NCBI GenBank assembly: GCA_965227835.1
Contig: OZ245768.1
Span: 1,200,001 to 1,232,000 of the forward strand
Source of the DNA: Candidatus Saccharimonadota bacterium
Lineage (GTDB): Bacteria > Patescibacteriota > Gracilibacteria > BD1-5 > UBA6164
Direction: 5' to 3'
DNA length: 32,000 nt
Below, in pieces: positions 3,032 to 31,675 of this stretch. The notes beneath the pieces are model-generated. The model was not told the DNA's origin and ran no database searches. It was given only the letters and a program-made list of their open reading frames with translations. Every line of letters begins with the position of its first letter. The first letter of the stretch is position 1. A program made the translations under genes and the position numbers.

Positions 3032-4231
3032 ATGTATAAAAGAAACATTGAGAATAAGTTTTTATCTTGGTTAGATAGAGATGAAATACTTATAGTAACA
3101 GGTTCAAGACAGGTTTGAAAGAGCAGTTTTATGAAAAGTATTCAACGAAAACTCAAACAAAAAAATATTTTTTTTAATTTAGAAGATTTTGATATATTAC
3201 AAACATTTGATGAAACACCAAAGAATCTTATTAAAATTCTAGATGAAAAGTTTTGATTAGAAGAAAAAATATATGTTTTTATTGACGAGATACAGTATTT
3301 AAAAAAGCCAAGTCAATTTTTAAAATACATATATGATGAATATAAAAACAGTATAAAACTTATAGTTTCGGGTAGTAGTGCTTTTTATATTGATGAAAAA
3401 TTTGATGATAGCCTAGCTGGAAGAAAAAAAATTTTTTATCTAAGACCTCTTGATTTTAAAGAATTTTTAATATTTAAAGACGAGGAAAGACTTTGAGAAA
3501 AAATAATAGAATTTGATGAATTAACAAATATAACTAAAAATAAAATATATAAATATCTTGAAGAATTTCTTATTTTTTGATGATATCCTAAAGTAGTCCT
3601 AGAGAGAGATAAAGAAATAAAAAAAGAACTTATATGAGAAATAGTTAATTCTTATTTAAAAAAAGATATTTTAGAGTCAAAGATAGAAATGCCTGAAAAG
3701 TTTTTCAAGCTTTATAAAATATTATCAAATCAAAGCTGAAAATTAATAAATGCAAAAGAATTATCAAATACACTGGATATTAGTACAACATCTATAAATA
3801 GATACTTACATGTACTTAAAAAAACTTTCCACTTTTATGAAGTAAAACCTTTTTTTCAGAATATTAGAAAAGAAATCACTAAAATGCCCAAATTTTATAT
3901 TCAAGACCTTTGAATAAAAAATTACTTTGAAAAAAATTTCAATAAAATAGAGTATAGAGTTGATTCTGGAAGTATTTTTGAAACTTTAGTTTTTCATGAA
4001 ATAATAGGAAAAACTCATTTAGATAGTATAAATTTTTGGAGAACTCAAGATAAAAAAGAAATAGATTTTATAATTGATAAAATTCCATATGAAGTAAAAT
4101 TAAGGTATGATTGAAAAAGAATTAATGTAATTGAATATTTTAAAAGAAAATACTTTGAGGAATGAAGAGTAATAACATTGAAAAAAGCTGATAATTCTAA
4201 ATATTTACAATTATACCCTTGGGAAGTTTAA
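3032..4231 (+). CDS. AAA+ ATPase of the AAA_14 / DUF4143 type
   Basis: 399 aa with TGA=Gly. Walker A is TGSRQVGKSS (GGT at 3101 is in frame). Walker B-like is VFIDEIQYL. C-terminal part is YLHVLKKTFHFYEVKPF...WRTQDKKEIDFII, typical of DUF4143 proteins. Start and stop (TAA 4229-4231) are in the same frame. Confidence 0.75.
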
Positions 4232-4348
4232 CGAGTTATCAAGAAAACCCTGAAGAATTCATTTAAAAGAAAAAGAATTATTTAGTTTAATGTTTCAATT
4301 TCTAAAGTTGGAATATTATTTAAAAATTTAAGTAATTTTTGAAAAAAT

Positions 4349-5110
4349 CTATAATTTCTTAAAGATAAATAAATGTTCATGCATAATCAGTAAAAAATTA
4401 GCTTCTTTAGATTTTTTCACCCAAAATCAAGTTGCTTTACAGTTATGCTGTACTTTTATAATATCTTCTTTTAGGTAGAATCAAACATTCAAAAATCTTT
4501 CCATTACTTTAAAAGCAATGGGTTGATACATTTTATTTCTTCTTGTATCTCACATCAATACAGCACAATATTTTCATGGTTTTAATACTCTATAACTCTC
4601 TTTTGCTACTTTTTCTATCTCGTCACAAAATTTATCTATATCATGAATATTTGATAAATCTTCTTTTATTTTTCCATCACTATATTTTATAATATCAGCA
4701 TAAGGAGGATGCATTAATACAAAATCAATACTTTCTTTTTTTAAATCTTTATTTTTTTCGGTGGCATTATATTTTTTTACTATAATTTTAGGTTCCTGTG
4801 ATAAATAAGAGGTTTCAAAATCAAGTAAGTTTTCTGTGAGTTTAATTGCATCAAGATTAATATCATAACAAAGCAAATTTCTATTGAGAAGTTTTGCCTC
4901 AATTGCCGTTGTTCCTCATCAGATCATAGGGTCAAGTAAAAAGTCTCATTCTTTGGAATATCTCAAAATAAGGTTTCTCACTACTTCCGGAGACCAGTTT
5001 CATCTATATTTTGAATTATGTGTCATCCAGTTTCATCTTCTCGGGAAAGACCAAACGGAAGAACATTCTTGTTCAAATTCTGTTGGGGGAAGTTTAAGTT
5101 TTTTAGGCAT
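4349..5110 (-). CDS. DNA amino-methyltransferase (N6-adenine or N4-cytosine), motif I before motif IV
   Basis: 253 aa. N-terminal WSFPRRGNWMTHNSKYRGNWSPEVVRNLILRYSKEGDFLLDPMIGGGTT (AdoMet motif I). HPPY motif IV at 4700-4711. C-terminal GDTRRNKMYQPIAF...IIKVQHN. It extends track ORF 4574..4876 in both directions through TGA. Stop is TAG at 4349-4351. Confidence 0.8.
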
Positions 5111-5420
5111 TTTTCTCAATAAACATATAAAGTTCTACTTCATCTAAAAAATCTAAATATTCAAATTCTTGCCCTACTAAGACAGACTTTGAAAAATAAA
5201 TATTTTCAAGTTTTTCTATTTGTTTACTCCCATTATTTTCTGAAAAGTACCAATCAAAATTTCTTCTTCAAACAGTTAAAAAGTTATTCATATTTATTTT
5301 TTTAATGTCTTTTTCTGATAATCCTTCTTGAAAAACCGGTATACAAAATATTTCTCTAACTTTCAATGTGTCTTTAATTTTTTCAAGCTGATGATAATAA
5401 ACTTTTTTTAAAGTTTTCAT
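5103..5420 (-). CDS. 105-aa ORF of unknown function between the controller and the methyltransferase (candidate small nuclease or toxin)
   Basis: ATG at 5420. The stop TAA (5103-5105) overlaps the methyltransferase ATG (ATGCCTAA), which suggests translational coupling. One in-frame TGA. No motif recognised. An alternative ATG at 5291 would give 62 aa. Confidence 0.45.
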
Positions 5421-5610
5421 TTTTTTCTTTTAATAAAATAATAATTTCAAGTCAAAGAAAATTAAGAATTTTTTGCAAAGTTGGGTTATCAAAATTTTTT
5501 GTTCTTATAGATTTATAAAAATTTTGTTTTGATATTTTTAATTCATTATAAATATCACTTTGCTTTAAGTTTCGTTTTTTTAAAAATTCTTTAATTTGTT
5601 CCTCTAACAT
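5374..5610 (-). CDS. XRE-type helix-turn-helix protein, candidate R-M controller (C) protein
   Basis: 78 aa: MLEEQIKEFLKKRNLKQSDIYNELKISKQNFYKSIRTKNFDNPTLQKILNFLGLEI. This is the classic HTH layout (LKQSDI..ISKQNFYK). Frame checked codon by codon. Its 3' end overlaps ORF 5103..5420 by 47 nt. Confidence 0.6.
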
Positions 5611-5635
5611 TCTTATTTTATTAATTCTTTAAATT

Positions 5636-5658
5636 AAGTCAACTAAATTAGTTTACTT
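5636..5658 (-). promoter_or_regulatory. C-box-like operator palindrome overlapping a -35 element
   Basis: aagtcaactaa-a-ttagtttactt is a 23-bp palindrome with one mismatch, 26-48 nt upstream of the HTH ATG (5610). On the minus strand TTGACT (5642-5637) is followed by 16 nt and then TAAAAT (5620-5615), which ends 4 nt before the ATG. No SD is visible, which suggests a near-leaderless transcript. Confidence 0.4.
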
Positions 5659-5747
5659 TTTGTATATTAAAGATAGACCATTAGAAAATTACTAAATTTA
5701 ATAATAATGTTAATATTTTTCATAAAAAGGTATTTTAAAATATAAAC

Positions 5748-6617
5748 TTATGTAACTAAATCATTTAAAATACCTTTTTTAAGCATTTCAATATTATAAA
5801 TATTTCAATCCATTTTATTGTAAGCTTCTTCTAATGGTTTACTAGCTTCATTCCATCATAACCCATCAGTAATCCAGTAAAATGATATATTTTGATTTTG
5901 CATAAAAGCATACAATCAGGCAAATTCTCAAGCTACTGCTTTTAATTTACTACCTCCTCATCAATAGTAATTTACTTCAAACAAATATAATTTATGATTT
6001 TCACTATTATAAACTGCAAAATCAAATCTTCTACTAGATTTATCTAATTGAACATCAATTCACCACTCTTTTTTCATAAAAATAGTTGTTGCTTGCTGTT
6101 TATACTCAAGTCATGGATTTCTTTCACATAAATCTTTTACAAATTCTTCTACTAACTCTTCCATTAAATCTCATGTTCTGTTTTTTCTCGCATTAGAATC
6201 AAGTCATGTTTCTACTCAAAAAACATAGTCATTTAAATTTGATATATTTTTATTCTCAAAAACATCTTTTAAACCGGATTCTCTGAAAAATAAAAGCATA
6301 TCAGAATCTTTAAAATCTTTTTTGCTATTAAATAAGTGTCTTACTTCAGATACTTCTAGAGTATTTTTATTAAGGATTTGCTTATCAAAATCTCTTACAG
6401 CTATTAAAATAGGTAATATCTCTCTTGTTTCAGGATATTCTTTCAAAATACTTAAAAGCTTATCCTCTATATTATTTTCTCATAAAAGAGAATTTAATAT
6501 ATTTAATTGAACTTTTATTTTAAAAGTATTTTCTTTAATTTTATTAAAATCTGAGAAATAATCCCAAGAAAATATAGAAGATTGCAATGTGGTTATTAGA
6601 TTTTGAAAATTTTGCAT
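5748..6617 (-). CDS. type II restriction endonuclease, DpnII/MboI family (GATC-type by family)
   Basis: 289 aa. Core YVFGVETGLDSNARKNRTGDLMEELV...RRFDFAVYNSENHKLYLFEVNYYGGGGSKLKAVAGEF matches my memory of the DpnII family signature. It extends track ORF 6216..6446. Start, internal stop and final TAA (5748-5750) are all in one frame. Confidence 0.85.
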
Positions 6618-6621
6618 ATTA

Positions 6622-8364
6622 TTAAATTTTTACTTCTTTTAATTCTTTGTTTAAATAATCAGAAAAATCTTTTGATTTAGCTGTATGTACAATATTGTCA
6701 ATTCACTTTTCCGGAGACTTATCATATGAATCTAATATTTTTAACAAAATTCGTAATCAACTATTAAAAACCTCTGTAGATAAATCCTCTAATTTAATTC
6801 ATTTAATTTCAATAAAAGTATAATCATATTTTTGTAAAACAATAACTGTTGTAATTAACATTAAATGAAAAGTAAAATTTCTTATAGAAACTCAATAATT
6901 ATTACTTATTAAATCTTCTTCCATATTTATAATTGAACCATTAACAAACTTATTAATAATACAAACTTTCAAATAAAGTTCTAATGGGACTTTATAATTA
7001 AATATTTTTTTATATGTCTCTGCATCTTTTACTAAAGATGTAGGATTTGCCCTAGCAGTTCAAGGACTTTTAAATAAAACTGTCTCAATATATTGAGCAA
7101 CTTTAGGAATATCAAATATTTTATTTCTGTCTTTATTTAAATTTTTATAATAATTTTTTCTTCTATCATAAAAATAACCTTCAGAAATAAAATATTCTTC
7201 AATATCTCTTTGTAGTCAATCAGTAGCTTTTAGATCAGCAGGTCTAACTGCTGTTTGACTATTTGTAGATTTTATAATTTTATCAATTACTTTTAAATCA
7301 TTACTTTTTATTAATTTTATTAATATGGTTCTCTTTTCATCTTTTAATAAGCTATTATTTTCAGTGAAAAAATTAAAAATTGAATAACTAGTTTGTAATC
7401 AATTTACAATTTGTGAATTTTTTAATCTTAATTTTTTTCATGGTAAAGGAGTTACTTCATCATTAATTATAGTAATTCAATTATTTAACCACAAAAATTC
7501 AATATTTGAATCCTCTTTTAAAGTTTCATAAATGTTATTATTAACTTCAACATTTCATTGCCAATGTCTTACATTATTTTCAAGCATATGTTCTTTAATT
7601 TTTCAGTTATCTCAACTAATAAAATTAAAATAATCTTTTATTTTTGCTTGAACAATATAAGCAACTTTTTCATCGTCTCATCAAAAAACTGTATTTATAT
7701 CATTTTCATATTTTAATATTAATTCATTATCTTCTTGCATTAAATATAATTCTCTTAATTTATGCCTTCAAATAATTGATATTTCAACATCCGTTGGGAT
7801 TTTATCTTTTATAAATCTACACAAAATACCAGATTTATTTTTTACTCACTCTGAAATATTACTTTCATTTCACTTAGAAATATAAATAATATTTATTTTA
7901 ATTTTATTTGTATATATTGGGAAATTATCTAATCATTTTTTTACCATATCAAATTTTGAAATTAATCCTTTATTATAATTTTTTTCTTCTAATTTATCAT
8001 CAAAATAATTATGAAAAGTTGCAATTAACTTATCAAAAGTAATCTCTTTAAAACTATCTGAATCTTTATTTTGAATGAAATATATTTCAAAAGTTGTATT
8101 TTTATTAATCTCTTTATTAGTAATTAAGCTATCTAATTCATCTTTTGTTAAAATAAACTTATCGTCAACTAACAATATTATTGAATCTATTCAACCATCA
8201 GATCATTTATCAACTATTGAAAAATAAATATCTTCAATGTTAATGTTTTTATTTTTTAAAATTTGAGAAATTGAGAAAACATCAAATAAGTTTTTTGATG
8301 ATAAACAATTATTTTTTCAAAATTGAGTTATTATTGAATCAATTAATTTAATATCTATTCACAT
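6622..8364 (-). CDS. AIPR-family (abortive infection phage resistance) protein
   Basis: 580 aa. N-terminal FDVFSISQILKNKNINIEDIYFSIVDKGSDGGIDSIILLVDDK, central WLNNGITIIND and SQIVNGLQTSYSI, all typical AIPR motifs. Same frame as track ORF 7933..8175. It starts 17 nt after the Dam stop and ends 4 nt before the endonuclease ATG. Confidence 0.8.
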
Positions 8365-8381
8365 ATATTTATTATTAAAAA

Positions 8382-9344
8382 CTAATAATTAACAACCACA
8401 ACCTCTTCAATTTCTCCTCTTCAACTCCCATTACTATTTACATTTCTTCTAGCTTTCACTATTTCAAATCTAAATCACTTGTATAATTCTCTTATAAAAG
8501 GAGTATTATGGTTTGATAACATTACATAAACTCATTTTTTATCTAATGCTCTAAATACCTTCGCTAATTTAGATTGCATATCTTGTCAAAATCATGAACT
8601 ATCATAAGAAGTGAAATTTGCACTTGTAGAAAGTACATCATAAGGAGGATCAAAATAAACAAAATCTCATTTTTTTGCTTTCGTTAAGACTTTTTCAAAA
8701 CTTTGTAACTTTATTTCTGCTTTAGTATTATTTAGTAACCTTGAAGTATTTATAATATTATCTCTTTGAATTATATCTGGATTATTATATTTTCAAAAAG
8801 GCACATTAAATTCTCCTTTTGAATTTACTCTGTATAAACCATTAAAGCAAGTTCTATTCAAGTATATAAATCTTCAAGCTCTCTGCAAAGAAGAATATTT
8901 TTTTTGAAAATTCTGTTCTCTGTCCCAAGCTCTAATTTCTAAGAATTTTTCTTTTGAGTATTCTAAAGACTCTAAAAAAGTAATTAACTTTTTAGGTTTT
9001 GTTTTAATTGTTTTATAAACATTAATAAGTTCTTCATTTACATCAGATAAAAAACTTTTTTCTCTCTGCAAGTTAAAAAAAACTGCACCTCATCACAAGA
9101 AAGGTTCAAGATAATCATTAAAATCTTGAGGATATAGTTTTTCAAACTGTGAAATGAGCTGTCTTTTACCTCAAACCCACTTTATGAAAGGCTTTGCTTT
9201 TATCGTATCAATATTTTCTTCAAAGAATTGTTCTCAAGATTTTAAATCATTAAAAAATCATCTCTTAAACCAAGATTGCACAACTTGGATACTGATTCAA
9301 AACTTATTAGCTAATTCTAAATTTATTAATGTAATACTTGCCAT
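8382..9344 (-). CDS. dam: Dam-type (D12 class) N6-adenine DNA methyltransferase with an N-terminal HTH-like extension
   Basis: 320 aa. KPFIKWVGGKRQL (TGA=Gly at 9171-9173), FLGGGAVFF, DVNEELINVYKTIK, NRTCFNGLYRVN, and DPPY at 8640-8651. Same frame as track ORF 8874..9071. An in-frame TAA lies just upstream of the ATG at 9344. Confidence 0.9.
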
Positions 9345-9420
9345 ATTGATTATTTTGCTTTTTTAAACAAGTTCCTAGTTTTTGTTCTAGAAAACTTTTA
9401 ATCCTTCACAAAACCAACTT

Positions 9421-11343
9421 CTAAACCTCCGTAATCATAGCTATAACCATAGGTTCTCTATCAATCTTTCTAGACATAAAAGACTCTAAATCTGTCCTTA
9501 TAATCTTTAATAAATCCTTTTCAGGAATATCAGGAACATCTTTTATAGTATTTTCATAAGTTTCTCTAGATTTTTTTATCAAACTTCTATGCACATTTTT
9601 AACTTCATCTAAATAAACAAGACCTCTAGTTTCAAGTTTTATATGCCCAATTATAGCTCTTGTTTTTTTATCTGCTCTATAATTTATAACCAAAACACCT
9701 GCTTCCATCATCTTCTCCCTAGCTTTCAACACATGTGATCAAGCTATACTCATAGCATATCAATCAATAACTATTTGCTGTATAGGAACCTTTATCTTAG
9801 ATTTGAATATATCTCAAGTATGGGGAGCAAAATCAACTATCTGACCATTGTCTAACAAAAGTATATTATCTTGAGGAAATCAAATACATGTAGCTGTTTT
9901 TCAGTGAATAGTCCTAAAATATAAATCTCAATAAACAGGCATAAAGTATTTTGGTTTTATCAAGTTTAAAAATATTTTTTGTTCTTCTTGAAAAGCATGT
10001 CATCAAGTATGATATTCTCAATCATCTTTTGTTAAAACATTTGCTCAAAGTTTTATCAGTTTATTTATAATGGCAACTACACTTCTATCATTACCCGGAA
10101 CTACACTTGATGAGAAAACTATAGTATCTCACTTTATTATCTCAACTGCACTGTGTGTTCATTCTGCCATCCTAGAAAGAGCTGAAAATTGTTCTCACTG
10201 ACTTCAAGTAGTTATTATAATTTGATTATGAGGAAGTATTCATTCAGTATTTTTAGGTGTCATTTTTTTTACAATACCAAGTTTAATATTTAAATAACCA
10301 AGTTTTCTAGCTATTTCGACATTTTCAATCATACTTCTTCAACTTAAAAATATGGTTTTTCAGTATTTATCAGAAATATCTATAAGTTGCTGTACTCTAG
10401 ATATCCAAGACGAAAAAGCAGCTATTATAAGTCTTCATCTTTTGTGATTTTTAACTATCTCATCAAGAGCTTCTCAAACATTTTTTTCACTCATAGAATG
10501 TCACTTCCTAGGAGAACCTGTAGAATCAGATAAAAAAAGAGTTATTCATCTAGATCATATTTCTCAAATTCTATCTAAATCAGCTGGAGAATCTATAGCT
10601 GGATTTAGATCTATTTTAAAGTCTCATGTATGTACAAATTTAACTCAAGTAGGAGACTCCATATAAAATCAAGCACAATCAGGAACAGAATGATTTACCT
10701 TGAAAAATTCAAAGCTAAGTTGTCATATTTTATGTCTTTTATTACTTCAAGCATCTACTTCTATAAGCACTGCTTTGTCCAAAACTCAAGCCTCTTCTAA
10801 TTGTTTTTTTACAAAACCTATTGTCAGTTTAGTTCAATATAAAGGAGGAAAACCCATTGCAGGATATACATGTTTTAATGCTCAAATATGATCAAGATGA
10901 GCATGAGTAATAACAAAACCTTTTATTTGTGATGTATATTTTGTAAGAAAAGAAACATCGGGTATAGAGTAGTTTACACCCGGTAAGGTATGATCAGTGA
11001 ATTGAACTCAACAGTCTATAAGTATAATATCTTCCCCGTATTGTATCATACTCATATTTTTAGAACCTGTTTCATCATTACCTCAAATAGGTATATATCT
11101 AGTATAACCTTCTCTAATAGTAGGAAGATAAAATTTAGTTTCTGGAAATTTTGATATAAATTTTTCTTGATAATTTATCTGATTTGTATTATTTCTATTG
11201 TTTTGATTACTTTGATTTGATATTTGGTTTTTATTATCTTGTGTATTTTTTGATATAGTTTGGGAAGAATCTTTTTTAAGATTCTCTGATCACAAAAGCA
11301 TATCGTCTAGTTCATTATCTAGCTCATTTAAAATATCTGTCAT
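9421..11343 (-). CDS. rnj: ribonuclease J (beta-CASP metallo-beta-lactamase RNase)
   Basis: 640 aa. THAHLDHIGA at 10879-10908, with the Gly encoded by TGA 10882-10884. Also VHTGDFK, ITTGSQGE and HTGGHA motifs. The C-terminus equals track ORF 9421..9732. Confidence 0.9.
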
Positions 11344-11658
11344 ATAGTTAAATATTAAGGTTTATAAAATTTATTGATAAAATTGGAACAAACAGTCATT
11401 AGAAAAAAAGACAAAGTTATTGAAACTAAAGGCAGTTAATGATAAAATTTTTTATCTTACTTGAATTTTAAAATAGAATCTTTTTGTTTATAGGTCTATG
11501 ATATGATTGTTTTTGAAAGAATTTTATTAAAAAGGAATTTAAAAAATTTATTTTCTTTTATCTAAAACAATTATATTGTTTTTTGTAAAAAATGCAAAAA
11601 ATAACAAAAAAATGTGGGATTAAAAAAATTTAACAATCAAAAAAGTATAATAAAATAT

Positions 11659-14058
11659 CTAGTTTTTTATAAAAAATGGTGTTATGATTCAAGAGAAATC
11701 AAAGGTTATAAAATAAGAACTCTTTATTTCTTCTAAATCATCTAAAGATATTTTTCATATATAAAGATCCTCTAGTTTTCATCAATTTTTTATAAAATCA
11801 TCTAGCTTAAAAAATCAGTTAACATATAGACTATCTTTTGTGAAAATTCATTCATCTGAAAAACTACCCATTCATCTTTTTAGTCTGAGTATGTAGTTAA
11901 AAACTTTTTCTAAATCTCAATTATAATATTGAATCATTTTTTCTAAAAGGTTTTTGTAGGAATTATTCAAAGCATAGCTTAAAAAATAGTATCTTTCAAA
12001 TATAGAGTAAAATTTCCTATCAGATTTTCAAAGAAATCTATTTTGGTTATATATAGCGACAGCCTCTTCTATTTCTAAATAGTTAGCAGTTCAAGAGCTA
12101 AAAATTTTATACTTTATTTTTTTTCAATTAATTCTTCTAAGATAGTGTCATTCTATTTCATGTGCTATTATACTTCTAAGTTCTTTTTTTCAGACTTTAG
12201 CTCAATTTCTAACATAAAGTATATTTCATTTCATCACAAATCTAGCAACTTTCAAACCTTTTTTTAGTTTTATATCTATTTTATAAATATGATTAAATCT
12301 CTTTATAAAATCATTTATTTCATTGAAATTTAGATATTCTTCTTCAACAATCAGAGGCTTTTTTTTATTTATTAAACTATCACAATAATCAAGACTATCT
12401 AGGTTTATATTACCATACAATTTAAGAGAATAGTTTGTAAAAGACTTGTAATCTTTGTTTTCAAATGCTCTCAAAAACATTATTTTATTTTTTATTTCGC
12501 TGTGTTTTCTTTTGTATAGTGAAGATAAAGGAATATCTGATATTTCTATTTTATTGAGTTTTTTTTCAAGCTCATCTAAATTTATATCAAGTTTATTATA
12601 CTCAAATTTGGGTATATATTTTCAAGAAGATTCTATGAATTTGTTTTTCTCTGTTAATATATTTTTTGGTTTTACAGATTCTATTATATTTAGTTTTTTG
12701 TCTATGTTTACTATATCATTATCAATGTTTTTCAAAAGTTCTTCATAGTTTCTTTTTATAGCTATATTTTTTGTTCACTGATTGTCTCAAAGGCTTCAAA
12801 TAGGAAATTCTCATTTTTTATATTTAAATGGATCAAGCAAAAATCATCTAAGAGATATTAATCATAATATTATGTTGGTTTTTCATAAATCATTTATAAT
12901 AAACTTTGTCTTCTTTTTTTCTCAAAGTAGAATTAAATCTAGTTTAATGCTTCATTTTGATATTTGAGAATCACTTAGCTTCAATACATTTTTAGCAAAA
13001 TCTATATCTATACAACTTTGTAAAACACTTGGCTTTATCTCAGAGATGTATTTGTATGTTTTATTTTCATAAATTATATGTAAATATTCTCTAGATCATA
13101 AAACTTTTTTTCATGAAATGCTTTTAATTTTATCTTCTATATCTCAAGAAAAAAGATCTCTTCAGAGTCTAACTCATTTTTCTACACTGTTTACAAATAT
13201 TCCATCAACTTTTTTTAGTCTATCTTTTAAAGGAGACAAATTTGCCATTTGTAGTTCTAAGCCAGGTCTTATATTAAGTTCTAAAACTAAAGGTCATTTA
13301 TTTTTATCCAAAACTATATCACAACCTAAGTATCATATCTTGCTAACTTGCTGGGTTTTTACTGCAAGAGACAATGCTTCTTCCCAATTTGGCAGTTTTA
13401 GTCATCTTACATCTCAAATACCAGGTATTGATTTTATAATATTTGTATTACTTGTTATATAGGTTAGTTTTCAAGTACCTATATCAATTCCAACTCAACA
13501 TGCTCAAGAGTGTATATTTGCTTTTCATTTAGAAAGTTCAGTAGGAACTCTAAGCATAGCCATCACAGGGACCATATTAAAAACTATTACCCTAATATCT
13601 GGTAGTCAATATTTTCATAGTAGCTCTATTTCTTCATCTAGCTCAACCTTTTTTTCTATTATTATCTTGTCTCTGTTTCAACTTAAAGAATAAAATCAAT
13701 CTAGTATATTTGAAAAATGTGATATCATATCTTTTTTTTCAAAATATTCATAATTGTTTGTAATATATTTACCTTGTGATGAAATTTGAGTAAAAATAAG
13801 TATTCATCTGCCACCAAAGCCCCCACTTGGTTTTACCACAAATGGAGGAATTAGTTTATCAAAAATACTATAATCAAGCATTTCATGGTTATCTAAAATC
13901 TCTATTGTATCTGGAGTTTTTATAAGATTTGTTTTTAAAAATCTTTTAGTTTTTATTTTAGAATCTGCCAGATTTTTCGCTATTTTATTATTATATCATT
14001 TTATATAATCTAGATTTCTAGCATTTTGACCTAAAAGTCAGTATGTTTTGAAAAACAA
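11659..14058 (-). CDS. fusion protein: alpha-L-glutamate-ligase-like ATP-grasp domain plus DUF1704 (QEGLA / MATCAP-like carboxypeptidase) domain
   Basis: 799 aa. N-terminal half has LLGQNARNLDYIKGYNNKIAKNLADSK, VVKPSGGFGGRGILIF, DIRVIVFNMVPVMAMLRVPT..SKGKANIHSGACGVGID and GCDIVLDKNKGPLVLELNIRPGL. C-terminal half has IIAHEIEGHYLRRING and ANYLEIEEAVAIYNQ. Same frame as track ORF 12226..12480. The first in-frame ATG is codon 60, inside the conserved region, so I infer a TTG start at 14058. Confidence 0.7.
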
Positions 14059-14063
14059 AATAA

Positions 14064-14969
14064 TTAATTATTCAAATATTTTTTAGATGAAAAATATCAA
14101 CTAAATGCTCAAATTGTTATGAACAGTAATAATTCCAGAGGAAATATTTTTGAAGCATTTTCAAGTACAAATTCCAAAGAATAGTCTATTCAAAATAGCT
14201 TTGGAATTCATAGTTTTATAAAGAAGTAAAAAACACTAACACTAATACAAAAGGCTATTATGGAATATATAGCTCATTGAAGGCTGAAAGGTCAATATAT
14301 AAACGCTTTGCTTCATCATACTAACTTAGTTATATATATTTCTTCTCTGTAATAATATATAAAATTTCATATTATAGAGTATGTTATTATTCATATAGCA
14401 AAAACAAAAATTCAAATTATAACATAAACTCATATTCCTAAAGATTTTAGTTTTTTTATAACTCATGTGATTCTAGAGTATTGTGATTTATAACTTGAAA
14501 ATATATCATTTTTTCTATTAATTTGGTCGTCTCAAAACAAATAAAGTTTTCATTCTATTATATAGTTTATTTTTTCATAGTCACTTAAAGGTATTTGGCT
14601 TATTGTAATAGTATTTGGAAGGGGATTTTGTTTTTCTAAAATTCTTACAAGTTCTATATCTTGTTTTTTTATATCTTCAAGGACTTCTTCTTGTGATCTA
14701 TATTTTATTTCTGAAAAAGAAGATTCTTCTCTAAGTTTTGATATCAAATCTATTACATCTTTTGAGTTTTTATCATATTTGGAATCTAGGTATAAAGATA
14801 TACTCATCTTATTGTTTACATAATTTATAAGTTCAAAACTTGTGTGGTGTAAAACAAGAAGTAGGTTTATAAAAAACATAAGCAAAGTAAGAACAAGTAT
14901 AGAAGATATACTTAAAAATTTATTTCTTAATATATTTTTTATGGAATATTTCAAAATTCTTTTAAACAT
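14064..14969 (-). CDS. ftsX: cell-division ABC-type permease-like protein FtsX
   Basis: 301 aa. Track ORF 14550..14969 forms the N-terminus (TM1 plus periplasmic domain). It continues through TGA into ITKLVGGSKAFIYGPFSLQGAIYS and three further TM helices. Stop is TAA at 14064-14066. Confidence 0.8.
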
Positions 14970-17431: not shown

Positions 17432-17459
17432 TTGACATTTATGTTTTTGTTAATATAAT
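17432..17459 (+). promoter_or_regulatory. consensus sigma70-type promoter
   Basis: TTGACA (17432-17437), 16-nt spacer, TATAAT (17454-17459). It lies about 200 nt upstream of the ATG at 17663. Confidence 0.5.
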
Positions 17460-17662: not shown

Positions 17663-18106
17663 ATGTTTGGAATAATAATAGCTATAGTTATTGCAGTATT
17701 TACAATTTTCGTCAGTAGCAATACTATGGAGGTTGGTTTCATTTCTGCCCTAGATTTTCTTTGGGTATGGTACTGGATTTGGACTGTATTGCAGGGGCTT
17801 ATCATAGCATTTATTATGCTGATCATTACAGGGGTTCTGACTTTCTCTGGAGCTAATATCCTAAGCTCAAAAGCTGGTGCTTTTTTGGGGATTGCGGCAG
17901 GTGGAGCATTATCAATATTATTTGTTACAAAACTCGCAATAAGAAGTATATTATTATTAGGTGGGGTTTACCTACTAATGACATCAGGAAATGCAGAAAT
18001 GACATTCTCTGAATTTGATAATACAAAGCTGATCTTTGGGGCAATTTTGCTTCTAATAGGTCTAATTATGTCTAAAAACTCCAGTTCATCTTCTTCTAGC
18101 AATTAG
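17663..18106 (+). CDS. small polytopic membrane protein (4-5 TM, Ser-rich tail), unknown function
   Basis: An intact 147-aa ORF even under the standard code. It has a strong SD, a consensus promoter and a strong terminator. There are 14 Gly codons, none of them TGA. Confidence 0.8.
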   Translation: MFGIIIAIVIAVFTIFVSSNTMEVGFISALDFLWVWYWIWTVLQGLIIAFIMLIITGVLTFSGANILSSKAGAFLGIAAGGALSILFVTKLAIRSILLLGGVYLLMTSGNAEMTFSEFDNTKLIFGAILLLIGLIMSKNSSSSSSSN

Positions 18107-18123
18107 GATAATTAAACGGTTTT

Positions 18124-18153
18124 AGAGTGGCACCGTAAGCCACTCTTTTTTTT
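18124..18153 (+). terminator. rho-independent terminator
   Basis: agagtggc (18124-18131), accgtaa loop, gccactct (18139-18146), then T7 (18147-18153). Confidence 0.8.
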
Positions 18154-18368
18154 GTCTGAAATTCTAGTATATAATTCAACATACACTAAAAATTAATATG
18201 ACAACTAAAATCAAACCCGTGTGATGTAATATTTTAAGTATTAGTTAATGGAAATAATTAATAATCATTTTTATTTTAATATTTTCTAGAATGTCAACAT
18301 TTTTTACTTCTATATTTTTTAAACTTATGATAAAGTTAATACAGATATATTTAAAACAAAAACAAAAA

Positions 18369-21200
18369 ATGTGAAATAAAAAATTTAATATAGTTTTTTT
18401 CAGCTTAGTTTGATACTTTTTTTTAATTGCTACAAGCTTTGCTTGAGCTCTTTCATGAACATCAAGATACAGTCAAACTCAAAACAAAAAAGAAGAAACC
18501 CAAGAAGTATGACTTTTAGAAACCATCAAAGACTTCTTTTTCAGCTTAGTGAGTTGGATATTCCTATGAATAATAATATTTCTGCTTTTTTATATTATTG
18601 TAAAAACGATAAGAGTAGCTTTTGAGGTATATTATGCAAAAAATATAAGATATTTGAAGATAACTCTACCAAGAGCAGACTCAAAACTAGATAAAGAACA
18701 AGAAACAAAAAAAGATTTTAAAGAAAAACTAGGAATGATGAGTATGTTTTACAAAGCTATACATAAACTATCTGAAGCTGGACTAAAAGATACATTTTTA
18801 AATACAATATTTTGACATTCAAAAATATCCCTAGAACTTGTTTATGACAAATGAGAAGTTTGCTTTTTTATAACAACATATACAAACTATGTAAGTCTAG
18901 TAATGCAACATCTAACCTCTGTATACAACAACGCAGAAATAATAGTATATGAATGAGTAAAAGACTATGTTAATCTAAAAGAAGAATGATACAGTCTGAG
19001 AGCTGCCTCTCTATGAAAAGAAAAAGATGATTTTTTTCCTATCAAAACCTATAAATACTTAGAAGATGATGCCATAAATAATTTCACAAATGTTTTTTGA
19101 TGATTAAACAAAGATGACAAGGCTGTTTTTCAAATGGTAATAAAACCTGAACCATCTAGTTATAACAAAAAAGCAAAAGAAGCAGCATCAAAAGTAGCAA
19201 AATGAAAGTACAAGGCAAACAAAAAATCAACTTTACAATTTTTATGGAAACCCTTTTGACTTCTTTTTAACCCAATAAGAATAATTTTTGAATGATCAGA
19301 TGCTGCAGTAGCAGATCAAAATAATGCACCATGAGCAAGCCAATGAGATTCTTATAAGATATTCAACCAAGCTGAAACAGAAAGTCAAAAATTGATGTGA
19401 GAAGCTGCTAGCCAACCTGTTTTTGAAACCAGCATAAGAATACTTGTTTCTAGTAAAGACAAACAAAAATCAGAAGATTGAATACATGCAATAGTTGCAG
19501 CTGCTTCTATATTTACAGATGAGTACAATAATGCTTTGGATAACCCTCAAATAATAGAAGATGCTATACCTTGATTGATAACAAAAATAAGATATTTTGC
19601 TTTTAAATACAAACTTGTATGATTTTTACAAAATATATCTTATCTATCAACGGATGAAATAACAACGATTTATCATATGCCTGATATAACTTATAATAAA
19701 TCCCCTATTATAAAATGGCTTGATTATAAAAAACTAGCTCCCCCTCATAATTTAAAAATACCTAAAGAACCTACTTATTTGACAAAAAAAGATCCAAAAA
19801 CAGGAGAAACAAAAAAAATACATATGCACCTCTGAGGTTTTCCAGTTTACAGTGATGGTGTTTTATTGGGATGGAATGAGTATAGAAACAAAAAGACACC
19901 TATATATTTTTCAAAAAAAGACAGAGGAAGACACCAGTATGTTTTATGAAAATCTGGTTGAGGTAAATCTGTATATATAGGTTATCTAGCTAGACAAGAC
20001 CTGCGGAATTGAGAATGATTTTGTGTAGTTGATCCTCATGGAGATTTAGTAGAGGATGTATTGGCATATACACCAAAAGAGAGGGCTAAAAATATTACTA
20101 TTTTTGATCCTGCTGACACAGAGAGACCTATGGGACTTAATATGCTTGAAGTAATATCTAAAGATCCAGATGCTAGAAAAAGAGAAATGGATAGAGCCGC
20201 AATGGATGCAACAGAGATATTTATAAAAATATTTGGTGATGAAATATTTGGTCCAAGAATACAGCATTATTTTAGAAATGGTTGTTTGACTTTAATGGAA
20301 GATAGTGAAGATGGATGAACACTTATAGATGTACCTAGACTTTTTGTAGATGATGCTTTTATGAAATACAAAGTTTCTAAAGTAAAAAATCCTGTAGTTA
20401 AATCATTTTGGGATCATGAATATGCAAATACTTGAGATAGAGAAAAACAAGAAATGATACCTTATTTCTCTTCTAAGTTCGGTCCTTTTGTAACAAACAC
20501 AACTATAAGAAATATAATATGACAACCTAAATCTGCTTTTAATATAAGAGAGTTAATGGATAACCAAGGTGTTTTACTTGTAAATCTTTCAAAAGGTAAA
20601 ATAGGAGCTTTAAATGCTCAGTTACTTTGACTTATTTTCGTATCAAAGATAAATATGGCAGCTATGAGTAGGGCAGATATACCTCAAGATCAAAGAAAAG
20701 ATTTTTATTTATATGTAGATGAGTTTCAAAATTTCGCTACAGAAACTTTTTGAGAAATATTGAGTGAGGCTAGAAAATATAAACTAGCGTTGATTATGGC
20801 TCATCAATTTATAGCTCAAATTTGATGAAATTGATCACAAAAATGAGATAAACCTTCTATTAAAGATGCTGTTTTTGGTAATGCTTGAACACTACAATCT
20901 TTCAAAGTATGAGCAGATGATGCTGAATATTTAGAAAAAGAATATGCCCCTTCTCTTTCTCAGCAAGACATAATAGGTGTTGCTAACTTTACTACGTATG
21001 TAAAACTAAACATAGATAATGCATCAAGTAGACCTTTTGATATAAAAACAATTTGGGATCAGGCTTATGAATATGAAAAAGCTAAAAATGGTGTAACAAT
21101 AGCTGAAATAGTCAGAGAATACTCTAGAAAAAAATACTGAAGAAGAAAAAAGTTTGTGGATTTAGAAATAGAAGCAAGGCTTTGAATAAAATCCGAGTAA
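18369..21200 (+). CDS. membrane-anchored P-loop ATPase, type IV secretion coupling-protein-like (VirD4/TraD/TraG-like)
   Basis: 943 aa. Two N-terminal TM helices. Walker A GKSGGGKS at 19947-19970 (two Gly are TGA), followed by CVVDPHGDL. Walker B YLYVDEFQNFAT (DE at 20718-20723). ARKYKLALIMAHQFIAQI. It runs through track ORF 20061..20318 in the same frame. Stop is TAA at 21198-21200. Confidence 0.7.
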
Positions 21201-21270
21201 CAATATTTTGAAATTTTTTAAATAAAGTGTTATTATTTGGTTGATGTATAAATTTTTAAGAAATAAAAGT

Positions 21271-22257
21271 ATGAAAAACAAAATAAAAAAAATATTTATC
21301 TGTTTAAGTTTTTTAGCAATTTACTTATTATGTTTTTTTGGTGTATCAAATAACTATACTTCAGCAAATATAGACGAAAACATAAATATAAATTTAGTAG
21401 ATGATTGAGATAAAGAAAGAAACAAGGAATTAAATAAATTTTGAAAAAGTGAAGATGGTTTTTTTGGTCTATGAAGTAGACAATGATGACAATGAATTTT
21501 TTATACTTTGGTTGAAATAGCCCAAAGTTTGAAAAATATGTTTTTTATATTAGCTACCTTGTTTTACTTAATAGTTTCTATAAAGCTTTTAGTAGCTGAA
21601 AACACAGAGGAACAAGTTAATAAATTCAAAAAAGCAATTATATGGGTAACTATAGGACTTATTATAATGCAAATAGCTTATTCTTTTACTGTAACACTAT
21701 ATGCAAAAGAAGTTTGAAGCTCTCTAGCTTTCAGTTTTATAAACAACATAGTAAATCCTTTAATATGATTAATGGAAGTACTTGCTTCTATGTTTTTCAT
21801 AGCAATAGCAATATTTGCTTTTTATAGAATGGTTACAGCAAATGGAAAAGAAGAAGAAGTAACTAGAGCTAAAATGTCTATAGTATATGCTATTATTTGA
21901 TTTATTTTAATAAAAGTAGCAAAAATTATAGTAGAATGAGTGTATGGAAAATTAGAATGTGAAGAAACAAGTATAGCAGGATTTAACATAACTACAACTA
22001 GTTGTATATGAGACGCTCAACTAAATACTCTAAGTTTTACTTTTATGCAAATAATAAATTGGGTAAACTCATTTGTGTGAATAATAACAGTACTTCTTAT
22101 AATATATGCTTGATTTAATATACTTTTCTCTGCTGGAGATGATGAAAAAGTTAAAAAAGGTAAAAACACTATAATATATATAGCTATTTGATTATTACTT
22201 TTATCTATAAACTACCTTTTATTAACTTTCTTTATAGTTCCAGAAACAACTATATAA
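21271..22257 (+). CDS. secreted/membrane protein with three tandem VirB2/TrbC-like (T4SS pilin-like) two-helix modules
   Basis: 328 aa. Signal peptide MKNKIKKIFICLSFLAIYLLCFF. Three repeats of the pattern TM helix, small acidic loop with K-rich motif, TM helix. The loops are LVAENTEEQVNKFKKAI, VTANGKEEEVTRAKMSI and FSAGDDEKVKKGKNTI. Same frame as track ORF 21508..21717. An alternative in-frame ATG lies at 21244. Confidence 0.6.
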
Positions 22258-22327
22258 ATAGTTTTTAAAACAGAATAAAAAACAAAATTAGTCTTACCTG
22301 AAAATTTTAATTCTTTTATTTAAAAAA

Positions 22328-23239
22328 ATGAAAAAAAGATACCTAGTTTTAATAGTTTTAGCAATAATTTCTCTTAGTTTATTTTGAGAAACTTTAGCAT
22401 GATATGGAAATATATTGTGATGAGATGAAATTAAAAAATCTTCTATAAATATAGAAGAAAAAATGGATGCTTGATGAGATATAGTATGAAGTATAAATAA
22501 TGTTTGATTTAGTGCTCTTTCTGTAATAAAACTTATTATCCAAGGTTTACTTGTAATATATATAGTTTATGTAGGAGCACAAATGGTTTGGGCTATGTGA
22601 GAAGATGAAGAGACATTAAGTAGTGCAAAAAGACAGATACGGTACAGTGTTATAGCTTTGCTTTTTATAAATATACCTTGAAGTATATATAGAGCTATAA
22701 ACCAAGATAGTTACTCTAAGGTATGAGAAAGGATTAGTAATGATAATTTTTTGGATAAATGAACAGAAACAAATATGTTTTTTGATGTATTTAATTTTTG
22801 ATATACTTTTTGAGATCAGGTAGTCTGATTTTTAGAAGTAACTATTTTAGCTATAGCTATAATAATAATTATATATGAAGGAATTAAACTTATAACAAGT
22901 AGATGAAGAGAAGAAAGAATAACTGAAGCTAAAAACAAAATAGTTTATGGTGTGCTTGCTTTAGTTTTTGTATGAATAATAGAAGCATGGAAGAATTTTG
23001 CTTTTTCTTTCAAAGTTTCTGAAGCAAGGAATATATTTAGCAATTTAGCTGATTTAGCTTTATTTTTCGCTGCTCCTGTTGCATTTTTCTTTTTAACAAT
23101 AGCTGCTTATTATTACATAACTTCAGCTTGAGATGAAGAAAGAATAAAAAAGGCAAAATCTATTGTAATAAATACCATTTTAGCTACACTAATTTTATTA
23201 GCAGCATACACTTTCTTACTTGATTTAGCTGAACTTTAA
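22328..23239 (+). CDS. second protein with three tandem T4SS pilin-like modules
   Basis: 303 aa. Signal peptide MKKRYLVLIVLAIISLSLF. Module loops are WAMGEDEETLSSAKRQI, ITSRGREERITEAKNKI and ITSAGDEERIKKAKSIV, each flanked by hydrophobic helices. Start and stop are in frame. Confidence 0.6.
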
Positions 23240-23264
23240 AAAAATAAATTTTAAATAAATAAAA

Positions 23265-23702
23265 ATGAAAAAAATAGTTTTGTTTGTTTTTGTATTAATA
23301 TTTACATGTTTTTATTCTTCAAATATTTATGCTGAAGATACAGGTACAATAAAAGTAGAAGTTCCAATTAATTTCTCTTGAGTTTTTGGTTCTAATGAAG
23401 AAGGTGGAGTAAAATGTAGCGATACTGCTTGAGATAATGGTAAATATTATTGTAATGTACCGAAATGAACTTCTTGATTTCAAGTTGTTCTTGCTTGAAT
23501 TATTAAGTATTTAATTTTTATAGCAAGTTTAGCTTGAGTTTTATTTATAGTAATAAATGGGATACTTTATACTATGTCTGGTATAAATGATTCTTTAAAA
23601 TCATCAGCAAAAGAGAGGATCATAAAAACTCTTTTGTGAATTATTCTTTTGATTATGAGTTGAGTTATCTTAAATATAATAGCTCCTTGGGTTTATAAGT
23701 AG
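23265..23702 (+). CDS. single-module T4SS pilin-like protein
   Basis: 145 aa. Signal peptide MKKIVLFVFVLIFTCFYSSNIYA, a Cys-containing ectodomain, then a helix, MSGINDSLKSSAKERI, and a second helix. Stop is TAG at 23700-23702. Confidence 0.6.
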
Positions 23703-23735: not shown

Positions 23736-23781
23736 AGATATTGAAACAATTTTAGTAAAAAATACTTTCAATATCTTTTTT
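23736..23781 (+). terminator. rho-independent terminator of the pilin operon
   Basis: Perfect 11-bp arms agatattgaaa (23736-23746) and tttcaatatct (23766-23776), followed by a T run. It lies 34 nt after the stop at 23702. Confidence 0.55.
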
Positions 23782-31004: not shown

Positions 31005-31675
31005 TTTCAACACATCGGGATAAAAACCCCTATCTTTAGATAGTTAAGACACCGAAGGTGTAAGTGATAGAAATTGAATAAATGAGATGTGTTGTGACAT
31101 AGGGTTTTAAACCCCGTTGCCTTCAGGCCGATTCTAAAGAAAAAAGTGTAAAAAATCAATAGAATAAATAAAATAGTGTTAAAAACTAACACTAGAGAGA
31201 ATGAAATACCAAAAAAGTAGTCATGCGACATATGATGTCAGATACCATATAGTATGGATAACAAAATACAGAAATCCATTCATGACAAAAGAGATACAAG
31301 ATAGATTGGAAAAGATCATAAGATGAATAAGTAAAAAGCTATGAGTAATAATAATAAAGATATGAATGGAAGAAGATCATGTACATATGTATTGTAGGAT
31401 ACCGTTAACTAAACCAATATCTACAATAGTATGACATATAAAGTGAGAAAGTTCTAAGGCAATAAAGAGGTATTTTTACAAAGAAATTAAGAGATGGTAT
31501 TGGAAGACATGAAATATATGGTGAGTATGATATTTTGTATCTAGTGTATGAGAGATAAATTGAGAAATAATATCTAATTATGTGGAACAACAGTGAGAAG
31601 AAGAGAATAAGATTGAAGAGATAGAGCTTTAAATTTCAGTACAAATAAAAGCCCCGTGCCTTCAGGCCGGGGTAG
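31005..31675 (+). mobile_element. IS200-type (IS200/IS605 family, tnpA only) insertion sequence; ends approximate
   Basis: A HUH transposase gene is flanked by related GC-rich subterminal hairpins: cg-tt-gcc ttca ggc-cg at 31115-31130 and ccccg-t-gcc ttca ggccgggg at 31652-31672. The left end also carries a long-range 9-bp stem, 31008-31016 with 31086-31094, enclosing two small hairpins. Confidence 0.6.
31201..31632 (+). CDS. tnpA: IS200/IS605 family transposase TnpA (Y1 HUH)
   Basis: 143 aa. SHATYDVRYHIVWITKYR, EEDHVHMY (HUH) and GVGYFVSSVG (catalytic Tyr region). It has eight in-frame TGA read as Gly. Stop is TAA at 31630-31632. Confidence 0.85.

Follow-up and report, generated by a model that had tools for sequence, protein, structure and literature searches.

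We analyzed a stretch of 32,000 nucleotides, here called the window, from the genome of a Candidatus Saccharimonadota bacterium (GenBank assembly GCA_965227835.1, contig OZ245768.1, positions 1,200,001 to 1,232,000 of the forward strand; placed in the Gracilibacteria by GTDB). The window carries a block of four genes at 18369-23702, which encode a large ATPase and three proteins (pB, pC, and pD) composed of pilin-like hairpin modules. A sequence-only reading had described this block as a cluster resembling a type IV secretion system (T4SS), with a coupling-protein-like ATPase followed by three pilin-module genes. Sequence comparison confirmed a real and strongly conserved four-gene operon, predicted to encode a T4SS coupling-type ATPase and three exported pilin-module proteins.

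With the standard code (translation table 11), open reading frame (ORF) calling returned only short ORFs across the region. As the genes were fragmented, standard-code calling was dropped and code 25 was used instead. Treating TGA as a sense codon lengthened the longest ORF of the window from 149 to 981 aa. In-frame UGA sits on invariant glycines, both in the Walker A motif of the ATPase (GKSGgGKS) and in the SHMT signature EgYPgKRYYggCG, and the code is therefore code 25 (UGA=Gly), which Gracilibacteria and Absconditabacteria use. The lineage is a Gracilibacteria-class organism, and its genes are invisible unless this code is applied. The G+C content of the window is ~24%. In the four operon genes, UGA accounts for 53 to 78% of the glycines, in agreement with the host genome. 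Under code 25, the gene coordinates of the sequence-only reading hold exactly. The features of the locus are as follows.

18124..18146, + strand: G+C-rich terminator that ends an unrelated upstream gene; 5' boundary of the transcription unit
18369..21200, + strand: ATPase (type IV coupling protein [T4CP] type), 943 aa in code 25
18384..18602, + strand: putative membrane anchor of the ATPase, with hydrophobic segment 1 (aa 6-28), an ~27-aa external loop, and transmembrane (TM) segment 2 (aa 56-78), by inspection
18651..19736, + strand: DUF8128 (PF26449), aa ~95-456, between membrane anchor and motor, from precomputed Pfam annotation of homologs and neighbors
19947..20822, + strand: span of the four motor-domain motifs
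19947-19970, + strand: Walker A, GKSGGGKS, aa 527-534
20025-20048, + strand: VVDPHGDL, aa 553-560
20706-20735, + strand: Walker B, YLYVDEFQNF, aa 780-789
20769-20822, + strand: ARKYKLALIMAHQFIAQI motif, aa 801-818
21241/21271..22257, + strand: pB, 338/328 aa, with its likely start at ATG 21271 or 21244
~21493-21714, 21715-21954, and 22006-22254, + strand: three pB modules (PF18895)
22328..23239, + strand: pC, 303 aa
~22484-22693, 22778-23011, and 23006-23236, + strand: three pC modules (PF18895)
23265..23702, + strand: pD, 145 aa
~23463-23699, + strand: single pD module, behind a Cys-containing N-terminal ectodomain
23736..23781, + strand: intrinsic-terminator-like hairpin (11-bp perfect stem, 19-nt loop, T5 tail); 3' end of the operon

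All four genes lie on the + strand, with gaps of 40 to 70 nt (ATPase-pB), 70 nt (pB-pC), and 25 nt (pC-pD). The ATPase start at 18369 agrees with the N termini of homologs; an alternative ATG at 18291 would add 26 residues (969 aa). The terminator at 18124-18146 closes the upstream gene, and the four genes therefore form their own unit. At the 3' end, the hairpin with which the sequence-only reading had closed the operon is real. It has an AT-rich stem (23736-23776) followed by TTTTT and a fold z score of -2.3, and in 23 of 28 related loci the third pilin gene is followed by a similar hairpin plus T-run. A consensus terminator scan missed it because the G+C filter of that scan demands G-C pairs.

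Judged by its profile matches, the motor domain of the ATPase is a member of the VirD4/TrwB-type T4CP family. The P-loop nucleotide-binding domain (NBD) exceeded the curated Pfam thresholds for T4SS-DNA_transf (PF02534; residues 520-858; 41.6 bits with a gathering score [GA] of 20.1; E = 9.5e-11) and for TrwB_AAD_bind (PF10412; 21.2 bits; GA, 20.5; E = 1.5e-4). TrwB of R388 (PDB 1E9R) was the sole match among PDB sequences, for the single ATPase and for the family profile alike, and the alignment spans Walker A plus DPxGD and Walker B plus the RK...Q motif. The ATPase also matched DUF87, the HerA central domain, above the gathering score (E = 1.5e-6). The Pfam scan gave no match to FtsK_SpoIIIE or to the VirB4 families CagE_TrbE_VirB, AAA_10, and P-loop_TraG, and the solved VirB4 4AG5 was matched neither by the single sequence nor by the family profile. 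NCBIfam models of TraD coupling proteins gave partial matches far under their equivalog cutoffs.

The VirD4/TraD-like assignment made in the sequence-only reading is therefore upheld by the two T4CP families and by TrwB. All four motifs that it quoted (the second P-loop motif as YVDEFQNF) are present, as are the two N-terminal hydrophobic segments behind its description of a 943-aa double-TM P-loop ATPase. Inspection of the sequence points to an N-terminal TM anchor with a short external loop, as expected of a T4CP; segment 1 could instead be a cleavable signal peptide, and the NBD would be cytoplasmic either way. The relaxase partner expected of a T4CP was not found in a Pfam scan of the window ORFs. 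T4CPs carry an all-alpha domain inserted in the NBD; here, about 245 residues separate Walker A and Walker B, and they are mostly helical in an AlphaFold2 (AF2) model in which the predicted local distance difference test (pLDDT) values are 30 to 50 in this part. With the VirD4, TrwB, TraD, and TraG coupling proteins the ATPase shares the N-terminal anchor, the P-loop NBD motifs, and Pfam membership. It differs from them in carrying ~360 to 400 aa of DUF8128 between anchor and NBD and in having no relaxase partner. It matches TrwB at very low sequence identity (21 bits), and it is conserved like a core gene, unlike a mobile-element gene.

The three downstream proteins were assigned through the Pfam family PF18895 (T4SS_pilin; GA, 26.6). 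It matched pB in three stretches (E = 1.4e-21; 76.7 bits) and pC in three stretches (E = 1.4e-13; 51.1 bits); the single stretch in pD fell under the gathering score (E = 6.2e-4; 20.2 bits). By these scores, the threefold repeat in pB and pC is far beyond chance. pB also exceeded the cutoff of 40 bits for the NCBIfam family NF045849 (Mbov_0395 pilin-like conjugal transfer protein) in three stretches (1.5e-14; 53.5 bits), and pC came slightly under it (36.9 bits). In an alignment, all seven modules share one pattern, which consists of a hydrophobic helix, a G-(D/E)-E-E-x-(I/V)-x-x-(A/G)-K loop, and a second hydrophobic helix. Most module pairs are homologous by hhalign (probability, 86 to 99%), with exceptions that chiefly involve the first module of pB (B1). 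The pD module matched the others with probabilities of 92 to 95%, except B1 (9%) and B2 (54 to 65%), and pD joins the family through hhalign and through a hidden Markov model (HMM) of the clade. This clade HMM was built from the seven window modules and run over related loci, where it found three modules in the pC of every ortholog.

Hydropathy analysis predicted a signal peptide and six hydrophobic helices in pB; the Sec-type signal peptides of all three proteins were assigned only by inspection of the sequences. For a pB homolog, AF2 modeled three hairpins with ~35-residue helices and 4-residue loops (pLDDT, 68). Hydropathy, module alignment, and the AF2 model thus agree on the signal peptide and the two-helix hairpin with a short polar loop that are expected of a pilin. 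A pilin is also expected to be a small subunit with a single hairpin, and pD alone has this form; pB and pC have three hairpins in all orthologs. The three secreted proteins of VirB2/TrbC-like two-helix modules described in the sequence-only reading accordingly stand as proteins with three, three, and one PF18895 hairpin modules, and the relation to VirB2/TrbC is undetectable in sequence. Similarities to VirB2, TrbC, and TraA pilins are the signal peptide, the two long hydrophobic helices, the short charged loop, and the association with a T4SS ATPase. The differences are the lack of detectable similarity to PF04956 or to solved pilins and the tandem triple hairpins in two of the three proteins.

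To follow the operon across species, we used one genome per GTDB species, which returned 80 loci. All 80 are in metagenome-assembled genomes of the class Gracilibacteria, and all but one use code 25. More than 460 ATPase homologs were found; the best 120 are full length and 68 to 86% identical, and the named ones are Gracilibacteria. This level of identity across the class implies vertical descent under strong purifying selection. The exact layout of an ATPase gene followed by genes with three, three, and one modules (3+3+1) occurs in 30 species-level loci including the window, and these form one clade of the ATPase tree. The sequence-only reading had named, as an outcome that would count against it, downstream proteins that fail pilin profiles or are not conserved as a cluster; we found PF18895 in pB and pC, and the cluster in 30 loci.

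Median identities to the window in the other 29 species were 73% for the whole ATPase, 45% for pB, 49% for pC, and 47% for pD. Within the ATPase, the membrane region was the least conserved (30%), followed by DUF8128 (69%) and the NBD (85%). These values describe a tightly constrained cytoplasmic motor with fast-evolving partners that are probably exposed. The cassette occurs once per genome in the 80 species, the ATPase tree agrees with the context classes described below, and the flanking genes vary among genomes. From this distribution, the cassette appears to be chromosomal and vertically inherited. Three loci of the 3+3+1 clade (L048, L051, and L076) carry three extra single-module pilin genes on the opposite strand (at ~12.1 to 13.4 kb), which gives ten modules in six genes.

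The gene contexts of the ATPase fall into three classes.

Class A, 30 loci in one clade, including the window: T4CP, pilin×3, pilin×3, pilin×1
Class B, about 24 loci: T4CP, pilin×3; in L027, L064, and L069 then RadA, a SpoIIE-type membrane phosphatase, and an ~650-aa ATPase
Class C, 18 loci in one clade: T4CP, SpoIIE, ~650-aa ATPase, prepilin-like protein, RluD

The ~650-aa ATPase of the sister clades matched the Pfam families P-loop_TraG and AAA_10 and the solved VirB4 4AG5 (E = 8.8e-41) and, by these matches, is a genuine VirB4. The orthologous ATPase thus shares its locus with VirB4 in 18 loci of the order T4CP-SpoIIE-VirB4 and in 3 loci of the order T4CP-pilin-RadA-SpoIIE-VirB4, and this adjacency ties the operon to a dispersed T4SS. 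One class C genome has two paralogs of the DUF8128-containing T4CP on one contig. The window ATPase is 65% identical to the paralog next to VirB4 and 40% identical to the second one, which makes it the ortholog of the VirB4-linked T4CP. In L083 (GCA_002747975.1, PDRA01000009.1), at 10001-14169, the second paralog (810 aa) comes after its own triple-module pilin and before a 319-aa secreted-looking unannotated protein, so that two T4CP-pilin modules coexist in at least one genome. In the window, as in class B, the upstream side includes RluD, here at a distance of 2.2 kb.

Two further genes accompany the system in the sister clades. RadA/Sms, identified by inspection (zinc finger and RecA-like domain), lies between the triple-pilin gene and SpoIIE-VirB4 in L027 (10954-12432), L064 (10998-12323), and L069 (10969-12294), a placement that hints at the possibility of DNA processing tied to the system. 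An ~400-aa membrane phosphatase of the SpoIIE/PP2C type (Pfam E = 1e-39) lies between T4CP and VirB4 in 21 loci (e.g., L026, L031, L037, and L066; in L084 at 8775-9980) and is a candidate for regulating the T4SS; the window does not contain it.

The large N-terminal domain of the ATPase, which the sequence-only reading had called a domain of unknown function, is indeed a domain of ~400 aa; it is already cataloged in Pfam as DUF8128 and is found in hundreds of T4CP-like proteins. A search with DUF8128 alone returned 766 cluster representatives at E≤1e-3. Ten distant members (24 to 34% identity in DUF8128) were scanned, and all ten had T4CP-type C-terminal matches, nine of them to TraG-D_C. Together, these counts make the DUF8128-T4CP a widespread architecture and not a local oddity. 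The DUF8128 profile had no match among PDB sequences, and a full-text literature search for DUF8128 found nothing.

Systems of this kind have been known since 2023 to 2025, and the one described here is a class-specific variant. Quinonero-Coronel et al. (2025; PMC12102498) placed a Patescibacteria VirB4 clade within MPF_FATA and found VirB4 in 2,417 of 3,035 Patescibacteria assemblies. They counted 5,713 VirD4-like T4CPs in 2,918 genomes, of which only 148 were near virB4, and 441 arrays of 2 to 11 genes for PF18895/VirB2-like pilins; relaxases were nearly absent across Patescibacteria. In Gracilibacteria, TrsD and VirB3 were unlinked from virB4, and VirB6 was undetected (PMC12102498). For the saccharibacterium S. 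epibionticum, essentiality has been shown for T4SS genes and for an array of VirB2-like pilins (PMC12857230), so that the statement in the sequence-only reading that the composition of such an apparatus had not been characterized experimentally is outdated (PMC12857230, PMC12102498). A 2025 review described these systems as unique among monoderms and speculated that the pilus is a conduit for uptake from the host (PMC12857230), and a 2026 preprint reported uptake of host RNA in a cultivated member together with tubular structures suggested to be T4SS pili (bioRxiv 10.64898/2026.06.21.733656). Multimodule fused pilins, a T4CP-pilin operon, and DUF8128 are unmentioned in the published survey, the review, and the preprint. 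In a full-text literature search, PF18895 was named in just two works.

The operon shares with the Patescibacteria T4SS, as described for the S. epibionticum ML1 locus (PMC12102498, PMC12857230), a chromosomal location, the lack of a relaxase, T4CPs that usually lie away from virB4, PF18895/VirB2-like pilins in multigene arrays, a monoderm bearer, and a presumed epibiotic role. Here, in contrast, one operon has the T4CP gene first and right after it a fixed 3+3+1 set of modules, joined in threes within a polypeptide, VirB4, VirB3, and VirB6 are missing from the locus, and UGA encodes glycine; the Gracilibacteria system is known from its genes alone. The tandem-fused pilins in a fixed set, their direct coupling to a DUF8128-T4CP, and the very high conservation of the ATPase are what is distinctive. 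The Mbov_0395 family comes from integrative and conjugative elements (ICEs) of mycoplasmas, and the score of pB above its cutoff links the modules to an MPF_FATA-type monoderm system. The 80-position profile of that family corresponds to one module and its members belong to a mobile element with relaxase-type transfer, unlike pB and pC. Because pB exceeds this cutoff, MPF_FATA-type monoderm systems may not lack VirB2-like pilins altogether, despite a general statement to that effect in the literature.

We consider it probable (roughly 70%) that the operon supplies the substrate-motor and pilin parts of the dispersed, chromosomal, nonconjugative T4SS of Patescibacteria, as the Gracilibacteria version of one of its subclusters. 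For export, topology, assembly, the hexamer, the substrate, and the direction of transport, we infer the following course. pB, pC, and pD would be exported via their Sec-type signal peptides and inserted as hairpins with both ends outside, so that the G-(D/E)-E-E-x-(I/V)-x-x-(A/G)-K loop of each hairpin would face the cytoplasm. A VirB4 encoded elsewhere would extract the pilin hairpins and assemble them into an extracellular tube or an envelope-spanning conduit. At its cytoplasmic mouth, a T4CP hexamer would use ATP to drive a macromolecule, either nucleic acid or protein, along the channel. Because there is no relaxase and the lifestyle is that of an obligate epibiont or predator, the machine would probably serve host-cell contact, exchange, or uptake rather than conjugation. 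That VirB4 is encoded elsewhere in class A genomes is suggested by its reported presence in most Patescibacteria assemblies.

Several results weigh against this assignment. As the sequence-only reading had also noted, Pfam scans of all other ORFs found no VirB4, VirB6, relaxase, or peptidoglycan hydrolase in the 32-kb window, and neither VirB4 nor other channel genes were found in the window or within ±7 to 10 kb of the loci of the 3+3+1 clade. A VirB4 search for this clade returned, among the matches listed, close relatives of the query clade only. pB, pC, and pD had no match to PF04956 (VirB2/TrbC) at E≤1. An attempt to prove at the level of fold that the modules are VirB2-like failed; the module profile gave only noise and no solved pilin among PDB sequences, and Foldseek with the six-helix pilin model returned only 14-3-3, ABC-transporter, and SNARE noise. 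The pilin assignment thus rests on PF18895, NF045849, and the predicted topology, and we know of no T4SS pilin that has three hairpins fused in one chain. For the ATPase, AF2 was given 28 correctly translated homologs and yielded a poor model (mean pLDDT, 53; DUF8128, 60 to 85; NBD, 30 to 50). Outside the Candidate Phyla Radiation, the nearest NBD relatives are on mostly nonmobilizable plasmids without annotated T4SS neighbors, and this plasmid setting urges caution with the label T4CP. In favor of the label, plasmid NBD homologs at 30 to 35% identity are annotated as [quoted passage not shown]; many are annotated just as "DUF87 domain-containing protein." Finally, the T4CP homolog of S. epibionticum is nonessential, unlike its other T4SS genes and its pilin array (PMC12102498), which leaves room for a T4CP exapted for another role.

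An unlikely alternative that still deserves weight is that pB, pC, and pD are not pilus subunits and instead form a polytopic membrane channel or platform (6, 6, and 2 helices) that replaces VirB6 and on which the T4CP docks. The covalent hairpin triplets, with six TM helices in pB and in pC, are unlike any characterized T4SS pilin, the modules have no similarity to solved pilins, and VirB6 homologs were reported absent in Gracilibacteria (PMC12102498). A 3+3+1 count fixed in 30 species would also suit a defined stoichiometric complex better than a variable surface array. However, every module belongs to the family (PF18895) of the single-module array pilins of other Patescibacteria (PMC12102498), and the pB, pC, and pD sequences evolve faster than the ATPase (45 to 49% versus 73% identity), as expected of surface-exposed subunits. 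The extra single-module genes in L048, L051, and L076 fit a variable pilin repertoire. With the N and C termini of each hairpin predicted on the outer side, tandem fusion would be topologically compatible with polymerization.

Distinctly unlikely, in our view, is a machine that works independently of VirB4 and imports DNA or RNA from the host, like archaeal Ced/Ted or ComB. T4CPs are established nucleic acid translocases in conjugation, and no VirB4 lies in the window or near the 30 loci of the 3+3+1 clade. RadA, a helicase of recombination and transformation, stands between the pilin gene and SpoIIE-VirB4 in three class B loci. Patescibacteria lack nucleotide synthesis, and a cultivated member imports host RNA via tubes suggested to be T4SS pili (bioRxiv 10.64898/2026.06.21.733656). 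Archaeal Ced/Ted import, which combines a VirB2-like pilin with an ATPase of the FtsK/HerA superfamily, offers a functional analogy for uptake, and the window ATPase has a weak NCBIfam match to the archaeal DNA-translocating ATPase CedD. This match, however, reaches 19.2 bits with a cutoff of 600 and covers only 76 residues around Walker A, and no CedA-like proteins were identified. The adjacency of the ATPase ortholog and VirB4 in sister clades argues for one common machine. Competence through ComEC and type IV pili already exists in the phylum, and loss of comEC is harmless to the viability of S. epibionticum (PMC12857230).

A more far-reaching idea, which we regard as a long shot, is that the DUF8128-T4CP is a core and possibly essential hybrid motor, with a VirB4-like N-terminal domain on a T4CP ATPase, and a surviving intermediate of the two T4SS ATPase families. 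With the triplicated pilins it would form a noncanonical conduit pulling nucleic acid or other macromolecules from the host, possibly without the classical VirB4 pathway in the 3+3+1 clade. The ATPase shares with VirB3-VirB4 fusions and TrwK the layout of a membrane segment, an ~400-aa N-terminal domain, and an ~450-aa P-loop domain. With the low-confidence ATPase model (pLDDT, 53), the top 13 Foldseek matches in the PDB were full-length TrwK/VirB4 structures (E = 6e-6 to 1e-3; ~600 to 850 aligned columns; TM-scores, 0.14 to 0.24), which ranked above the coupling protein DotL (336 columns) and HerA. In contrast, the NBD classifies as a T4CP, related genomes encode a separate genuine VirB4, and hhalign of DUF8128 with the N-terminal domains of 18 Gracilibacteria VirB4 proteins gave a probability of 1%. 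This comparison has little power because hhalign of the full-length T4CP with full-length VirB4 detected the NBDs alone, with a probability of just 58% from shallow profiles. With these profile and PDB searches negative, we keep a VirB4-like N-terminal domain in DUF8128 only as a tentative lead.

It is very improbable that the ATPase is a general translocase of the FtsK/HerA type unrelated to secretion, the other outcome that the sequence-only reading had named as counting against it. The DUF87 match exceeds its gathering score, HerA is among the weaker Foldseek matches, and plasmid NBD homologs often carry just the DUF87 label in non-T4SS contexts. Against this, T4CP families score better or also pass (T4SS-DNA_transf and TrwB_AAD_bind here; TraG-D_C in distant relatives), FtsK_SpoIIIE is not matched, and synteny with PF18895 pilins and VirB4 is kept over the three context classes.

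Scarcely credible is an integrated conjugative or mobilizable element with an ordinary conjugation T4CP and accessory genes: conjugative elements typically carry T4CPs and pilin-like families, NF045849 comes from mycoplasma ICEs, and the window also contains a restriction-modification/abortive-infection island (3032-9344) and an IS200-type transposase (31201-31632), yet Pfam scans of the window ORFs found no relaxase, integrase, or replication genes beside the cassette, housekeeping genes (RluD, FtsX, RNase J, S41 protease, and SHMT) flank it directly, its single copy per genome in a clade-congruent context is not a patchy distribution, its class-wide identity (68 to 86%) indicates vertical descent under purifying selection, its UGA use agrees with the host genome, and pB was unmatched in 72,556 plasmids.

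Housekeeping genes identified by Pfam elsewhere in the window encode RNase J, an ATP-grasp/MATCAP fusion, FtsX, RluD, an S41 protease, and SHMT. The fusion (11659-14058, - strand; 799 aa) joins a sugar-transfer-associated ATP-grasp domain to a MATCAP (tyrosine carboxypeptidase-like) domain. The defense island at 3032-9344 encodes an AAA_14/DUF4143 ATPase, an N6_N4 DNA methylase, a helix-turn-helix protein, a DpnII endonuclease (E = 3e-90), and a D12 methylase, with an AIPR abortive-infection protein inserted between the endonuclease and the Dam-type D12 methylase. The IS200-type Y1 transposase (31201-31632, + strand) has 11 of 11 glycines encoded by UGA, which marks the element as fully adapted to the recoded genome.

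The genes on either side of the operon (147 aa upstream and 465 aa downstream, the latter on the opposite strand) were rejected as parts of the system, as neither is conserved beside the ATPase in any related locus. The upstream gene is listed here.

17663-18106, + strand: gene for a 147-aa polytopic membrane protein, with a promoter-like site at 17432-17459 (perfect TTGACA-16-TATAAT)

Its product has no family match and no homolog in related loci. None of its 14 glycines is encoded by UGA, and its G+C content is 36%; in 25 of the 26 other window genes UGA encodes 53 to 100% of the glycines, and all 26 have a G+C content of 17 to 30%. The terminator behind it (18124-18146) is the region's only G+C-rich one. 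The gene may have been acquired recently from an organism that uses the standard code, or it may avoid UGA. An RNA gene in this G+C-rich region was also considered and rejected, as Rfam gave only a subthreshold chance match.

Among 120 listed ATPase homologs, 92 are stored in the database with Trp at every UGA (code 4, not 25), as are all but 5 of the ~300- to 370-aa pB homologs checked. Entry P0121 equals pB apart from Trp at UGA positions and looks like the mistranslated window gene, and entry P0495 (969 aa), matched by length and contig only, looks like the mistranslated window ATPase. Database copies of these proteins are thus mostly mistranslated (UGA=Trp) or fragmented, which corrupts their glycine motifs and hides the proteins from surveys.

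Much of bacterial diversity belongs to the Patescibacteria, which live on other cells, and to our knowledge their T4SS is the first that has been shown to be essential for its bearer. The coupling-type ATPase is among the most conserved proteins of this system (NBD, ~85% identical across species). Genetic linkage connects it with the pilin genes and, among the sister clades, with VirB4, RadA, and a phosphatase of the SpoIIE type. The operon offers concrete targets in the role of DUF8128, in the polymerization versus processing of the fused pilins, and in regulation by the phosphatase.

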